Shown in pieces: positions 50,372 to 54,731 of a stretch of DNA of 64,000 nucleotides; position 1 is the stretch's first letter, and every line of letters begins with the position of its first letter. A program made the translations under genes and the position numbers. Location: positions 8,768,001-8,832,000 of the forward strand of contig OZ244999.1 of the NCBI GenBank assembly GCA_965223265.1, written 5' to 3'. The notes below the pieces were generated by a model. That model had not been told where the DNA came from. It worked only from the letters and a program-made list of their open reading frames with translations, and searched no databases. Source of the stretch: Planctomycetota bacterium (GTDB lineage Bacteria > Planctomycetota > UBA8108 > SXIK01).

Positions 50372-51525
50372 TTCTGAAAACCGTTTTGCGGGCGCGGCGC
50401 CGAACAGCGCAGCACGGTGTAACCACGTTTCCCACGCCATGTGCGCTCAGCGAAGTGTCGTTCACAGATGGCCTGGGCTTTCTCTGTCGCCTTGGTGACA
50501 CACCAGTAGGCGCCACCGGGTGCCAAGACGTGTGCTGACTCGCGGCAGAAGTGTTCGAAGATACGAAAATCTCCGAAGTACGGCGGATTGGCGAGGACGA
50601 CGTCGACGCTCCTCGGCTTCAGCGAACCGAGATCGTAGGCGAGGAGCGGTAAGACGTTGTCGCACGCACAGCTTTTGGCGTTGACTGCGGCCTGCTCAAC
50701 GGCGCGGACGTTCGAGTCTACGAGGATCGCGTGACCCGCGCTGGCGACACGGGCTGCGGCGATGCCGAGAGCTCCTGGACCGCAGCCAAGCTCTACGACC
50801 CGCGAGTCGGTTTCGATCGCCGCGAAGTCCGCAAGCGTGCGAGCGCCGTCGTCCAACCGGCCGTGGGCGAAGACGCCGGGCCGGGTGACGTAATCGATCG
50901 CATGACCGAAAAGCTGCGCAGCGATCCGACGGGTGAAGTCGCGGCGTCGCAGCTGACGGTCGCGCTGTCGACGCGCCACGTAGACGACGCCGCCCCGAGA
51001 TCGGTCGTGGATCGTCGCGTCGCCAAAAATGTCGACGACGCGCTCGCGCAGCCAACGGTCTGACCGGTTGTCTGTAGCGGTCAGTAGCTTGCCTCGTGGC
51101 CGGAGGGCCTCAAAACACTGCCGCAGTAGCTCTCCGGTCAATCGTGCGTCAGCAGTGTGCGGCGCCGCAAAGACAACCCAGTCGAATGCTCCTCGCGGCA
51201 AATCCGACGCGAGATGCGGCGTGACTGCAGCGATATGATTGATCCGGAGGCTCTCGCAGCCGCGGTGGAACTCGTACGCGTCCATGTCGAACGAGTGGAC
51301 GTTCGCACTTGGAAAAAGGAGTCGGACGGCCATGGCGCCGACGCTTTCCGGACTGAGAACGACGAGAATATCTCCTGCCATGGGTTGATCCAGCGCCGCC
51401 AGCAAAACCCGCTGGGCGCGTTGAAGCCCGCGCGCTGAATGGATCTCGATGCGGCCACCGAGGAGAGTCTCACGCCGCCGTGCTTTCGATGGGTTGCCCA
51501 GTGTGACGACGTGTTTCTCAGTCAC
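50368..51525 (-). CDS. RsmC-like class I SAM methyltransferase
   Basis: TRPGVFAHGRLDDG, VELGCGPG, LANPPY; start uncertain. Confidence 0.85.
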   Translation of the reverse strand: MTEKHVVTLGNPSKARRRETLLGGRIEIHSARGLQRAQRVLLAALDQPMAGDILVVLSPESVGAMAVRLLFPSANVHSFDMDAYEFHRGCESLRINHIAAVTPHLASDLPRGAFDWVVFAAPHTADARLTGELLRQCFEALRPRGKLLTATDNRSDRWLRERVVDIFGDATIHDRSRGGVVYVARRQRDRQLRRRDFTRRIAAQLFGHAIDYVTRPGVFAHGRLDDGARTLADFAAIETDSRVVELGCGPGALGIAAARVASAGHAILVDSNVRAVEQAAVNAKSCACDNVLPLLAYDLGSLKPRSVDVVLANPPYFGDFRIFEHFCRESAHVLAPGGAYWCVTKATEKAQAICERHFAERTWRGKRGYTVLRCSAPRPQNGFQN

Positions 51526-51761
51526 GATTCTTCTATGTTGAGGCTGGGGGCCGATGGACGCTGGTTGGGATCCTGCCGCGATGGCGCTCGCACGCCTTGG
51601 TTGTACATGAACCGCTGACGGCAGGATGGTGGCAAGACCCGACAAGCCGTGAACGCCTTAGTGTTGTTCACGACAGTTGGTACATCAACGCACTCGTGAC
51701 CGGAAAGTGAGGCCATGCCTACGAACTCAAGGCGCGGCGGGTCTGAGGGGAGGCAGAGGCG

Positions 51762-52042
51762 GAGACAGAGACAGAGACAGAGACAGAGACAGAGACAGAG
51801 ACAGAGACAGAGACAGAGACAGAGACAGAGACAGAGACAGAGACAGAGACAGAGACAGAGACAGAGACAGAGACAGAGACAGAGACAGAGACAGAGACAG
51901 AGACAGAGACAGAGACAGAGACAGAGACAGAGACAGAGACAGAGACAGAGACAGAGACAGAGACAGAGACAGAGACAGAGACAGAGACAGAGACAGAGAC
52001 AGAGACAGAGACAGAGACGGGCCGCCCACGCCCACGCCCACG
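51762..52042. repeat. Perfect (GAGACA)42+GAGAC microsatellite followed by (CCCACG)3
   Basis: Counted from 51762 to 52018; CCCACG block at 52025-52042. Confidence 0.97.
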
Positions 52043-52105
52043 CACAGCGGTGCGGCGGCGATCGCGCCGACGGCAGAGAAGAACTCTGCTGCTCTGGGCG
52101 ATCAT

Positions 52106-52229
52106 GCGGCGGCGGTTTTGTCGATCTTAACCGAAGCCGAGCCGGCCTCAAGGGTGCCCTCGCTGCGCTCGGCGCTTCGCGCCCTTGACCCCGTCTCTGC
52201 TTCGGTTGGCGGCAGTGAAACGCCGCCGC
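52106..52229 (+). promoter_or_regulatory. Conserved structured leader of four-helix-bundle gene 1
   Basis: Nested stems GCGGCGGCG/CGCCGCCGC, AACCGAAGC/GCTTCGGTT, TCAAGGG/CCCTTGA; 41-nt core 52148-52188 shared with the leader of gene 2. Confidence 0.75.
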
Positions 52230-52274
52230 GTCGGGCGTCGGCGACAGGTCACTGGGCCGTTACCGGAGGCACAC

Positions 52275-52598
52275 ATGGGCTTTCTTGCTCTGGATCACAC
52301 TTTTGGCATCGTTCGTCAACTGCGTCCCCTGGTCTCGAGCATCCGTCGTCACGACTCGAAGCTGGCCAATCAGCTGCGCGATGCCGGTTCGTCTGTGGCG
52401 CTCACCCTCGGCGAGGGCAATCGGCGTCAGGGGCGTGACCGCGGGCATCTTTGGCGCGTTGCTTCGGGCAGCGCCGAAGAGGTGCGCACGGCGCTTCGCG
52501 TTGCTGAAGCTTGGGGCTACATCGACCAAGCCGAGGCTGCTGCGGTGCTCACGGACATCGATGAGCTGCAGGCGATGCTTTGGAAGTTGACGCGCTGA
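52275..52598 (+). CDS. Four-helix-bundle protein (23S rRNA-IVP / bAvd-like)
   Basis: 107 aa from ATG 52275 (GGAGG upstream); QLRDAGSSVALTLGEG and RVASGSAEE match the family pattern QxRRAxxSxxxNIAEG...ARGSxxE. Confidence 0.9.
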   Translation: MGFLALDHTFGIVRQLRPLVSSIRRHDSKLANQLRDAGSSVALTLGEGNRRQGRDRGHLWRVASGSAEEVRTALRVAEAWGYIDQAEAAAVLTDIDELQAMLWKLTR

Positions 52599-52660
52599 CG
52601 CGGGAGCTTTGGCCCGCCGTGCGCTATTTGGCGCGGCGGGTTTGACGGGGAGGCAGGGGC

Positions 52661-52791
52661 GGATACGGATACAGAGCCAGAGGCAGAAGCAGAGTCAGAA
52701 CCAGAGTCAGATACGGATACAGAGCCAGAGTCAGAATCAGAGTCAGATACGGATACGGAGTCGGAAGCAGACTACCACGCCCACGCTCACG
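52661..52791. repeat. Degenerate two-block hexamer array (GGATAC/AGAGTC/AGAGCC then CCCACG/CTCACG)
   Basis: About 18 RGANNC units followed by ACCACGCCCACGCTCACG, between the convergent genes. Confidence 0.9.
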
Positions 52792-52861
52792 CGCGTCGCT
52801 TCATTGGAAACGGCAAGAGCTTGCGCCCGCCGCGGATACGGCGGGCGCGGGTGGCTCATGC

Positions 52862-53185
52862 TCAGCGGGTGAGCCCGCGAAGAAGTGCTAGCAGGCGATC
52901 GAGCGTCTTGAGCGGAGTGGTGACGTCTTCGTTCTTGAGAACGCCCCAGGCCAGGGCCAGTTGTAGCGCCGTTTCGACCTCGCGCGCACTGCCGCGCGCG
53001 ACGCGAAAGAGGTGCTGGCGATCTTTCCCGGAGCGCTCAGCGCCTTCCGAGAGGTTGAGCGCGACCGAGGAAGCAGCGCGCCGGATCTGCCGGTGCAGGT
53101 CGGGATCGAGCCGCCGAAGCCGCACCAAAGGAGCCCGCAGGTCGCCGATCAAACCGAGACTGACGTCGAGAGCGATGAAGCGCAT
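52862..53185 (-). CDS. Four-helix-bundle protein (23S rRNA-IVP / bAvd-like)
   Basis: 107 aa from ATG 53185 (GGAGG upstream); QIRRAASSVALNLSEG, FRVARGSAREV. Confidence 0.92.
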   Translation of the reverse strand: MRFIALDVSLGLIGDLRAPLVRLRRLDPDLHRQIRRAASSVALNLSEGAERSGKDRQHLFRVARGSAREVETALQLALAWGVLKNEDVTTPLKTLDRLLALLRGLTR

Positions 53186-53231
53186 GTGAAGCCTCCGAAG
53201 AAAAGGTGAGTCAAGAGCCGCCGCGTCCGAT

Positions 53232-53347
53232 CGGCGGTACCTCACCCCCAATGCGGAGCGGAGGGACTGTCAAGAGCGCGAAGCGCCGAGCGCAGCGAGG
53301 GCACTCTTGACAGTCCTGAGCACGGCGTACCATCGACACAACCGCCG
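53232..53347 (-). promoter_or_regulatory. Conserved structured leader of four-helix-bundle gene 2
   Basis: 13-bp perfect stem GGACTGTCAAGAG/CTCTTGACAGTCC (53264-53316), outer CGGCGGT/ACCGCCG; core 53270-53310. Confidence 0.75.
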
Positions 53348-53373
53348 TACGGTAAACCGTGTCACAGCTCACA

Positions 53374-53436
53374 CACGGTCACGGTCCACGGTCCACGCCC
53401 ACGCCCACGCAAACGCCCACGCAAACGGGAATCGGG
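53374..53436. repeat. CACGGT / GTCCACG / CCCACG / CAAACG short-repeat array
   Basis: Read directly, upstream of the leader of gene 2. Confidence 0.85.
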
Positions 53437-53645
53437 AGGCCAGCACGGACCGCCAGCCCCGTCCACACACCGAATCTGCGGGCTTGTTTTGCTTCATGTC
53501 ACGGCGCGAGTCCACCAGGCAGCCTACTCTCTGCCTGCCCTGTTCAGCGCGAGGCACTTCTTCAAGCCTCTGCCTCGAAGTCCATGCCTTCCGTTGCTCT
53601 CGTGGATGCCATGCGATACGATCTCGCTCCATGGGAGATCGCAGT

Positions 53646-54731
53646 ATGACCTCAGCGGCGCAGACATCGGCGACGATGCGTGCCGTGGTTTGTGTGGCGA
53701 ACGGCAAGACGGTTTTCGAGCGTCGAGCCGTTCCAATCCCGGCGCGTGGCGAGATTGTTCTACGCCTTCGCGCCTGCGGTCTTTGCGGCACCGATCTTTT
53801 CAAGCTCGCACATCGGAGCGTGCCGAGCGGTACTGTGCTCGGACACGAGGTCGTCGGTGTCGTCGACAACGTTGGCGAAGGTGTCGACCAATTCGAGCCG
53901 GGCGACCGCGTCGTCGTCCCGCATCACGTCGCTTGCGGGAAGTGTCGGTTGTGCCGGCTCGGTAGCGAGACGATGTGCGCGACGTTTCGTGAGAATTTGA
54001 TGGAACCGGGCGGCTTTAGCGAGCGCGTCCTCATCCGCGAGCGCGCCGTGCGCTTGGCGGCGCGTCGACTGCCTGCGAGTGTCAGCGACGCGGCGGCGGT
54101 GTTTATGGAGCCGGCCGCTTGTGTCCTTCGCGGTCTACGCCAAGCGTCGATCGGCCCGGTCGCTGGCGACGACGACCGGCCGCCGGTCGCGGTCATCGTC
54201 GGAGCTGGAAGCATGGGGCTCCTCCATTTGCTCGTCCTTCGTGCATGGCGGCCTGAGGTCAGAATCGTCGTTGTCGATCCGATCGCAGAGCGATGTGATC
54301 TGGCGCTCGAGCTCGGCGCTCAGGTGGCGGTCACTCCAGGGGAAGACGTCGCCCGTCGCGCGGTCGACGAGCAGAGCGGTGGGCTCGGAGCCGATGCAGC
54401 TTTTGATACTGCGGGAGGCCCAGGCACACTAAATACTAGCCTGTCGCTTCTTCGACCTGGTGGTTCGGCCGTCCTTTTCGCGCATGCGCCAGAGGGTGGT
54501 CCGGCGAACTTCGATCTCAACGAGCTCTTCAAGAACGAACAACGCGTGCTTGGGACCTATTCGGGGGGATTGACCGACCAGGCTGAAGTCTACGAAATGA
54601 TCGCGAGCGGTCGCCTCGACGCATCATGTTTGGTCACGCACTCTCTACCCCTCGAGCGCTTCGACGCGGCCGTCGATCTCGTCAGGCGACACGAGGCTCT
54701 GAAAGTGCTTCTGGTGGCTCAAGAAGGATAG
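53646..54731 (+). CDS. Zinc-dependent alcohol/polyol dehydrogenase (MDR)
   Basis: CGTD, GHE, CGKCRLC..C, GAGSMG; start moved to ATG 53646 (GGGAG upstream). Confidence 0.9.
   Translation: MTSAAQTSATMRAVVCVANGKTVFERRAVPIPARGEIVLRLRACGLCGTDLFKLAHRSVPSGTVLGHEVVGVVDNVGEGVDQFEPGDRVVVPHHVACGKCRLCRLGSETMCATFRENLMEPGGFSERVLIRERAVRLAARRLPASVSDAAAVFMEPAACVLRGLRQASIGPVAGDDDRPPVAVIVGAGSMGLLHLLVLRAWRPEVRIVVVDPIAERCDLALELGAQVAVTPGEDVARRAVDEQSGGLGADAAFDTAGGPGTLNTSLSLLRPGGSAVLFAHAPEGGPANFDLNELFKNEQRVLGTYSGGLTDQAEVYEMIASGRLDASCLVTHSLPLERFDAAVDLVRRHEALKVLLVAQEG

Follow-up and report, generated by a model that had tools for sequence, protein, structure and literature searches.

A branched, covarying hairpin upstream of stand-alone Avd-like genes in a planctomycete, a candidate cis-acting 5′ leader

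Two inverted copies of a 41-nt sequence lie in the 64,000-nucleotide stretch of planctomycete DNA analysed here (contig OZ244999.1, positions 8,768,001 to 8,832,000; hereafter the window), each of them 5′ of a small gene for an Avd-like four-helix-bundle protein of the PF05635/TIGR02436 family. The sequence is the core of a branched hairpin that recurs with compensatory base changes in other genomes, and the reading that we favour, with about even confidence, is that of a structured, cis-acting 5′ leader that is transcribed with these stand-alone Avd-like genes and is possibly bound by the protein that they encode. The core would then be the apex of a structured leader of ~110–190 nt, cotranscribed with the gene and acting in cis on the mRNA through control of translation and perhaps of stability.

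A conserved core in 39 copies linked to one gene family

Copy A of the core occupies 52148–52188 on the forward strand and copy B occupies 53270–53310 on the reverse strand, as the reverse complement. The 41-nt cores differ at two positions, which jointly replace a G-C by an A-T in one pair of the TCAAGG/CCTTGA stem, and their inner 29 nt show no difference. A second box, CGGCGGTTNTGTCGAT, is found at 52110–52125, 22 nt 5′ of core A, with a counterpart 21 nt 5′ of core B; the start codons follow at 52275 (+) and 53185 (−), 86 and 84 nt past cores A and B respectively. Below the cores, the lower stems of the two copies are unlike in sequence yet still pair, with one C-T mismatch in copy A and, in copy B, a sound 6-bp inner stem and an outer stem weakened by two mismatches against its own family consensus. 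The antisense strand of the cores reads GCGC-GAA-GCGC and GC-GCA-GC. A sequence-only reading of this DNA had reported these positions, the compensatory pair, the boxes, the distances, the pairing of the lower stems and the antisense motifs, and all are present in the sequence. It had described two copies, which are real, but the family is far larger. The genome, a single 9.18-Mb contig with 60.8% GC, contains 39 copies of the inner 29-mer at up to 3 mismatches, compared with 0 for a reversed control pattern, and the window contains 2 matches against 0.00 expected; these counts exclude a chance origin.

The link to four-helix-bundle genes posited in that reading is strong. Sixteen copies lie 5′ of a type-A gene (the type of gene A) and 20 lie 5′ of a type-B gene, while three are orphan or truncated; that is, 36 of the 39 precede a PF05635 gene, and all 36 are oriented as the gene is. 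The PF05635 profile has 38 matches in the genome, so nearly all PF05635 genes here carry the leader. Each copy belongs to a repeat unit of ~600 bp in which the upstream box and the hairpin come first, then the gene, with a GC-rich hairpin at the end, and within each type the copies are closely alike over the whole unit. The 39 copies are scattered over the chromosome on both strands, singly or in convergent pairs and in no array; seven loci, including that in the window, are convergent A/B pairs. Some copies are irregular: the type-A copies at 906382, 7190528 and 8370691 have a 12-nt insertion directly after the core that breaks the 3′ strand of its basal helix (P3, below), that at 8370691 also has a lower stem entirely unlike the others, and in copies such as those at 8372069, 8304556 and 7451786 the lower stems are chimeric and mismatched, as would follow from recombination inside the core.

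Occurrence in other genomes

Other genomes were searched with two covariance models, R1 built from the window's genome and R2 from 27 copies of several genomes, a search that the sequence-only reading had proposed and that found further copies. Among 61 relatives, R1 gave hits in four, namely the window's own genome, G007 of the same order (14 hits), G021 (3) and G048 (1). With R2, 6 of 151 genomes in an even sample of the phylum were positive, as were 16 of 41 genomes, in 10 of 18 genera, of a family of lower-GC planctomycetes, f19. The motif also stands 5′ of homologous genes in four loci from metagenome-assembled genomes (MAGs) labelled Polyangia (L105), Myxococcales (L114), Thermoanaerobaculales (L113) and Rickettsiales (L135). 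A four-helix-bundle gene follows downstream in the same orientation at 11 of the 12 loci inspected in G007 and at all those inspected in G021 (3/3), G155 (6/6) and G177 (3/3). In f19 the gene is downstream at 19 of 26 inspected loci, the seven misses being three contig ends, two orphans and two probable chance hits; the lone G048 hit has no four-helix-bundle gene. The gene family is itself patchy, with 7 of the 61 relatives positive and with 37 family gene matches in the window's genome against none in three genomes of the same family (80–96% complete). A minimal element at L115–L119, matched by R1 and not by R2 at an E-value of 1e-4, was not counted, and L201, L192 and G168 look like chance hits within other sequence.

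Leaders of other forms were seen beside homologous genes. Perfect hairpins of 29–34 bp with the Shine-Dalgarno (SD) sequence in the 3′ arm precede them at L137 (G005), L140 (G017), L074, L078, L090 and L126, and the Myxococcota loci L071–L111 have homologous genes with a leader hairpin of ~150 nt and a conserved GCGCGCGTCACGG. The genes of this clade seem generally to have hairpins that sequester the SD.

Fold and covariation of the leader

The leader is composed of an outer helix, P1, around a long variable stem, P2, with P3 above it and an apex in which P3 meets P3a and P4 in a three-way junction. The branched shape suggested by the sequence-only reading is borne out by this junction and its covariation in other genomes. 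In copy A (forward strand), the P1 5′ strand (TGCGGCGGCG, 52105–52114) pairs with the 3′ strand (CGCCGCCGCG, 52221–52230) both in RNAalifold on 12 distinct type-A leaders and in the single-sequence minimum free energy (MFE) fold; the P2 arms, 52129–52145 and 52191–52207, pair with each other, with compensatory changes in paralogues; and within the core P3 is formed by 52148–52153 and 52183–52188, P3a by ~52158–52172 and P4 by 52172–52182. In copy B (reverse strand), the P1 5′ strand (CGGCGGTT, 53330–53337) and 3′ strand (ACCGCCG, 53232–53238) were obtained by RNAalifold on 13 distinct type-B leaders, the lower-stem 5′ arm (53311–53331, including the conserved GTGCTC) and 3′ arm (53251–53269) by comparison of stems among copies together with the fold, and the helices P3, P3a and P4 of its core by comparison of cores and the fold. 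P1 reads GCGGCGGCG:CGCCGCCGC in type A and GGCGGCGGT:ACCGCCGCC in type B, and the second box consists of its 5′ strand and the adjoining junction.

Under P3 there is a 7-bp stem, then an internal loop of P2 with conserved GUGCUCG on its 5′ side and CUGCGC on its 3′ side, then an outer stem. At the DNA level, GTGCTCG is conserved in G007, G021, family f19 and one Myxococcales MAG locus, and both loop sequences, together with ~17 unpaired or mismatched junction bases, are kept across families. P3 (UCAAGR/YCUUGA) covaries from G-C to A-T in the window's genome and to T-A in G048. The other two helices of the core are backed by changes in other genomes: P4 is GGCGC-TTC-GCGCC here, GGCGAC-TNN-GTCGCC in G007, with one whole pair more, and GTCGC-TGC-GCGAC in L113, and P3a has a tandem pyrimidine mismatch in its sequence here (CCTCGC-TGC-GCTCGG) but forms six uninterrupted base pairs in L157, L186, L190 and L114.

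In the window's genome alone, 78.9% of cells pair in an alignment of 26 copies, compared with 32–46% when the partner is slid; this alignment leaves out the three type-A copies with the 12-nt insert, five type-B copies that contain a recombinase element and five others, and one further type-A copy that has no upstream box was excluded from leader alignments. When 44 copies from 12 genomes were aligned to R2, 87.1% of cells paired against 31–42% when slid, two-sided change was found at 17 of 24 pairs, and the covariation score was 0.447 against 0.119 for shuffled data, a value reached by 0 of 500 shuffles, though these figures overstate the case, because related copies from the same genome are not independent and the alignment is fitted to the model. 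Four antisense echo rows had been removed from this cross-genome alignment by a lowered E-value. Alignment of 29 f19 leaders with MAFFT and RNAalifold, which is not fitted to a model, recovered the same stems, with compensatory changes at 13 of 25 pairs.

These results bear on whether the core has a function at all, since recent duplicates homogenised by gene conversion might look conserved in the absence of one. Such homogenisation would be in keeping with the within-type similarity along the whole unit and with the chimeric stems, which hint at exchange among copies, but it is already hard to hold, and we regard it as very improbable: the core is identical in types A and B though protein A has just 49% identity with protein B, and the structure recurs with compensatory changes in other families of the phylum and at the four differently labelled MAG loci.

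Strand, ribosome-binding site and transcription signals

In f19 the start codon lies 22–30 nt past the hairpin, and MFE folds of the 26 scored leaders show, in 25, at least five SD bases paired with the segment just 5′ of the hairpin, in a helix whose flanks vary among genomes. P1 would in this family be an anti-SD:SD helix, by which the folded leader would conceal the ribosome-binding site. Of 29 f19 leaders, 28 retain a U-G wobble in the CGUGC/GCGCG step, and in leaders of the window's genome, G007 and G021 the sense folds contain 73 G-U against 6 A-C oppositions, compared with 15 against 19 in the antisense folds. The simpler perfect hairpins of other family genes, which follow a like principle in taking the SD into the 3′ arm, also speak for RNA. 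The sequence-only reading had left two alternatives, a single-stranded DNA (ssDNA) or cruciform site and an RNA in the 5′ untranslated region (UTR). Because of the SD pairing and the wobble in f19 and the large excess of G-U over A-C on the sense strand in the window's genome and its nearer relatives, the evidence favours the 5′ UTR RNA, and the DNA site is the less favoured of the two.

In the window, an SD-like GGAGG is located at 52265–52269 (+) in copy A, 5 nt 5′ of the ATG and outside P1, and at 53192–53196 (−) in copy B, where its MFE partner is CUCCG directly 3′ of the hairpin. For type A, a helix between the SD and the 3′ arm of P2 was considered and dropped, as changes in the arm are unmatched in the SD region. 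An N-terminal extension (from TTG at 52185) or a leader peptide is also out, because 1-nt indels among type-A copies show that the stretch from core to ATG is not coding.

A number of observations weigh against a transcribed, SD-masking leader. In predicted folds, the SD pairs with P1 in two of the five leaders scored from the window's genome and in none of the four from G007 or the three from G021, and in the window's genome the SD is positioned outside P1, ~45 nt further downstream. The sense strand is the more stable in just 11 of 29 f19 folds (G-U pairs, 125 versus 99), and MFE values of 44 bare hairpins are better on the sense strand in 25 and on the antisense strand in 19. Raw counts in the model-fitted alignment give 16 G-U against 39 A-C, many of the A-C cells falling at pairs 17/111, 22/106 and 23/105, where we judge, from counts pooled over rows, that the B-type structure misfits type-A rows. 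TTGAC, on the 3′ side of P3, is better conserved than the 5′ strand it pairs with, which reads TAAAG in 6 of 44 copies; exceptions to TTGAC in the 44 rows are C or G for the first T in four and G for the second T in two, and the better conservation suggests that this sequence has a specific role in addition to pairing. A scan for promoters upstream returned 0 sigma-70-type sites. Among sequencing runs, the stretch was traced to four of a single study, none of them listed as RNA. Finally, G173 contains 28 identical look-alikes (38 bits), one in each copy of a 1.6-kb insertion sequence (IS) of the ISL3 family that has no four-helix-bundle gene, and this copy folds far better on the other strand (−47.0 versus −31.0 kcal/mol). 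The look-alike (L153:163–1771) is found ~113 nt 5′ of the transposase start, in the opposite orientation and facing away from the gene.

The conservation of TTGAC across the 44 copies, greater than that of its pairing partner, would also be expected if TTGAC(A) were the −35 box of a promoter, with the junction as the site of a regulator or an alternative sigma factor and the symmetry as that of a dimeric DNA-binding protein. No other promoter is seen, the conserved sequence 5′ of type-B leaders is very short (it starts only ~8 nt 5′ of P1, beside variable microsatellites), and in the G173 IS TTGACA faces outward, all of which would fit. We nevertheless consider a promoter or operator quite unlikely. 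TTGAC(A) is present, yet no −10-like hexamer is found at 16–18 nt in any clade, consistent with the empty sigma-70 scan, and a −10 would have to lie in the 3′ arm of P2, which covaries. Neither covariation at 17 of 24 pairs over ~90 nt nor an asymmetric junction would be predicted of a dimeric operator, and in f19 the anti-SD strand of P1 lies 5′ of TTGAC and would hence be missing from such a transcript. A sigma-54 reading of the core, from GG-N10-GC spacing seen by eye, was dropped, as the GG is absent in the G155 copies. There is no T run after the leader hairpin, and a scan of 51950–53450 for intrinsic terminators gave 0 sites.

Encoded proteins and a possible RNA ligand

Gene A (52275–52598, +) and gene B (52862–53185, −) each encode a 107-amino-acid Avd-like four-helix-bundle protein, with matches to PF05635 (E 2.9e-14 and 2.7e-15; 53.6 and 56.9 bits, cut-off 33.8) and to TIGR02436 (E 1.4e-14 and 1.7e-15; 54.2 and 57.2 bits, cut-off 24) for A and B respectively, and a match to PDB entry 2GSC at E 2.4e-12. 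The AlphaFold2 (AF2) model of protein A has four helices, with a predicted local distance difference test (pLDDT) score of 94.7, and was aligned by Foldseek with query-normalised TM-scores (TMq) of 0.86–0.90 to 2RLD and 2GSC and of 0.84–0.86 to bAvd in 4DWL and in the ribonucleoprotein 8UB7 of a diversity-generating retroelement (DGR). PADLOC returned nothing for A or B. Past gene A, a GC-rich hairpin followed by TTT (52611–52644, +), conserved in type-A units, ends the unit and is a likely terminator, missed by a simple terminator scan because it has fewer than five T; past gene B, a GC-rich hairpin conserved in type-B units (52823–52848, −) ends that unit.

In the DGR of a Bordetella phage, the bAvd pentamer holds an 11-bp stem-loop of the Spacer RNA via flipped-out bases, and such stem-loops are present in 207 of 278 DGRs with Avd homologues, as given in the available part of bioRxiv 10.1101/2023.10.23.563531. 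The conserved unpaired bases of the leader may be the docking site of a trans-acting factor, and because this homologue grips its stem-loop through flipped-out bases, the encoded Avd-like pentamer would be the preferred candidate, exerting feedback control. That the leader is bound by the encoded protein is plausible from homology only, which is to be counted with the points against the leader reading listed above.

The two systems are alike in that a homologous pentameric four-helix-bundle protein (8UB7, 4DWL) occurs with an RNA stem-loop that adjoins its gene, and this stem-loop (~9–11 bp in the Spacer RNA; same preprint, part available) likewise ends in a small loop and contains bases that are unpaired or flipped out. 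They differ in several respects: the hairpin here is 5′ of the gene, whereas that of DGRs is 3′ of the template repeat (TR), and it is larger, branched and present in 39 copies per genome. There is also no reverse transcriptase near the units. The genome has four matches to PF00078 (at 1.90, 3.42, 3.52 and 5.91 Mb), all distant from the units (TR and variable-repeat (VR) pairs were not searched for), so a DGR context was rejected.

A bolder proposal, which we hold as possible though tentative, is that stand-alone Avd-like pentamers have the branched hairpin as their cognate nucleic-acid ligand. The ~600-bp unit would then be a self-recognising protein-RNA cassette, its protein gripping the leader at the junction, that moves and multiplies in genomes and serves as an attachment site for other mobile elements. 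Proteins of PF05635/TIGR02436 are common and often multi-copy, and the accessible portions of PMC11270868 and PMC10053308 give no known function or partner for them outside DGRs.

Comparison with intervening sequences and regulatory leaders

Stems of the intervening sequences (IVSs) of 23S rRNA are RNase III substrates. By analogy, the leader could be a transcribed processing or stability element and not a protein-specific switch, its long, nearly perfect stem being cut by RNase III or another nuclease specific for double strands, which would free or destroy the mRNA. P1, P2 and P3 amount to ~30–40 bp with small internal loops, a length suited to this, and the simpler perfect 29–34-bp hairpins with the SD in the 3′ arm before other family genes could be read in the same way; the protein family is moreover known from rRNA intervening sequences (PMC11270868, part available). 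Cleavage of a long stem would, however, leave the ~17 conserved junction bases and the GUGCUCG/CUGCGC loop unexplained, and we consider it unlikely. IVSs share with the units PF05635 proteins (PMC11270868, same part), a long RNA stem by the gene, an apparently selfish character and a patchy distribution, but here the stem precedes the gene, whereas the IVS stem encloses it, and the units lie outside rRNA. An rRNA location was rejected, as the single 23S gene (2007925–2010917) is of normal length and 0 of the 38 PF05635 matches fall inside it.

The leader reading also finds parallels in SD-sequestering leaders such as those of ribosomal-protein genes and translational riboswitches, in which likewise a closing helix pairs with the SD (as predicted in 25 of 26 f19 leaders) and conserved unpaired bases sit within a covarying scaffold; it differs from them in having no Rfam 15 family match and, in the window's genome, in the position of the SD outside P1. 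No described motif was recognised. Rfam 15 gave 0 matches at the gathering score in the 64-kb window, just four unrelated weak matches (E 0.08–7) in 51900–53500, and just three weak matches to microRNA (miRNA) models in 10 loci of other genomes. The literature searched, covered in part and without supplements, describes no leader motif for these genes.

The units as mobile cassettes

Five type-B leaders are interrupted at one and the same position, between P3 (TCAAG) and the 5′ arm of the lower stem, by a 2.78-kb element whose 696-amino-acid product is a large serine recombinase (domains Resolvase, Recombinase and Zn_ribbon_recom). There are six copies of this element, at least 98% identical over its length (for example ~7186370–7189138, L205), and the sixth, at ~8835395–8838170, lies just past the end of the window beside a leader fused to a truncated gene. 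In addition, the A/B pair in the window occupies what is an empty site elsewhere: 51474–53646 comprises 2.1 kb of microsatellites and the A/B pair between a methyltransferase and a dehydrogenase gene (compared with L211, L212 and L214), and in G002 and G003, of the same family, only a short spacer separates the orthologues of these two genes; the methyltransferase gene of G001 points the other way. It follows from the recombinase insertions and the empty-site comparison that the units act as cassettes that insert and multiply, with the conserved leader in use as an attachment site. Such use does not show the leader's own function.

The insertions raise the question of whether the hairpin acts as DNA, as a cruciform or branched ssDNA site for a recombinase, a transposase or the four-helix-bundle protein itself, with a role in the spread or rearrangement of cassettes. 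Apart from the shared insertion site and the empty-site comparison, several features are compatible with this: the units are multi-copy and patchy across relatives, the chimeric lower stems look as if recombined within the core, and the G173 copy is carried in an IS in the opposite orientation. The antisense loops GAA and GCA also fit d(GCGNAGC) DNA mini-hairpins, which are very stable. Against these stand features of the palindrome that are difficult to reconcile with a DNA site. It ends at the SD in 25 of 26 f19 leaders, which is sensible for an RNA and pointless for DNA, and its orientation with respect to the gene is fixed (36/36 here). The GNA loop rule, from which the sequence-only reading argued for ssDNA, is obeyed in the window's genome and, for the most part, in G007 but is broken in f19, where the sense loops of P3a and P4 are also GGG, AGG, GGAG and GGGG. 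Large serine recombinases use double-stranded sites, and being a target is not the same as having that function. The occurrence of units on both strands and in seven convergent pairs implies no replication-strand bias, the copies are dispersed with no array, and only one weak match to a Y1 transposase was found, far from the units. A DNA site is on this evidence improbable, about as much so as the processing element.

Like integron attC sites and repetitive extragenic palindromes (REPs) or bacterial interspersed mosaic elements (BIMEs), the leaders are imperfect inverted repeats by small genes, with variable stems that still pair, and they are a recombination target, here of the serine-recombinase element. 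In attC sites, however, conserved R boxes are located at the stem base and the apex is variable, whereas the leaders show the reverse, a conserved apex on a variable base, and their copies are scattered over the chromosome instead of forming a cassette array (no search for integrase genes was made). In contrast to both attC and REP sequences, orientation and start-codon distance are fixed here and nearly all copies are tied to one gene family. Unlike REPs with their REP-associated tyrosine transposases (RAYTs), or IS200/IS605 elements, the sole PF01797 match is weak (27.3 bits, 4.21 Mb) and far from the units, and 36 of 39 hairpins are linked to PF05635 genes.

Hexamer microsatellites of (GAGACA)n, often with (ACGCCC)n-type tracts, flank the window's units at 51760–52019, 52650–52800 and 53375–53430. 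They were rejected as part of the motif, as Tandem Repeats Finder (TRF) finds 289 merged arrays of period 6 or 12 in the genome and only 43 of these are within 200 bp of a unit; a microsatellite is upstream of 26 of the 39 units and downstream of 11. Long open reading frames through the (GAGACA)n tract (51522–52438; for example 51677–52438 and 51715–52188) are repeat artefacts and not genes. Similar period-6 arrays, (CCGAAC)n, (GGATTC)n and (CGGACT)n, are seen 5′ of homologous genes in other phyla.

Implications

The leader is a candidate RNA family absent from Rfam 15, and the analysis shows PF05635 genes that behave as dispersed cassettes and brings to light a serine-recombinase element for which the leader is the target. 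A conserved, covarying and gene-specific three-way-junction leader provides a handle on the function of PF05635/TIGR02436 proteins, which may lie in protein binding to the leader or in a translation switch. If the branched hairpin is indeed the ligand of the stand-alone pentamers, it would be the first defined partner for the large orphan PF05635 family, and would suggest that the grip of DGR Avd on its Spacer RNA descends from, or spawned, a module independent of reverse transcriptase.

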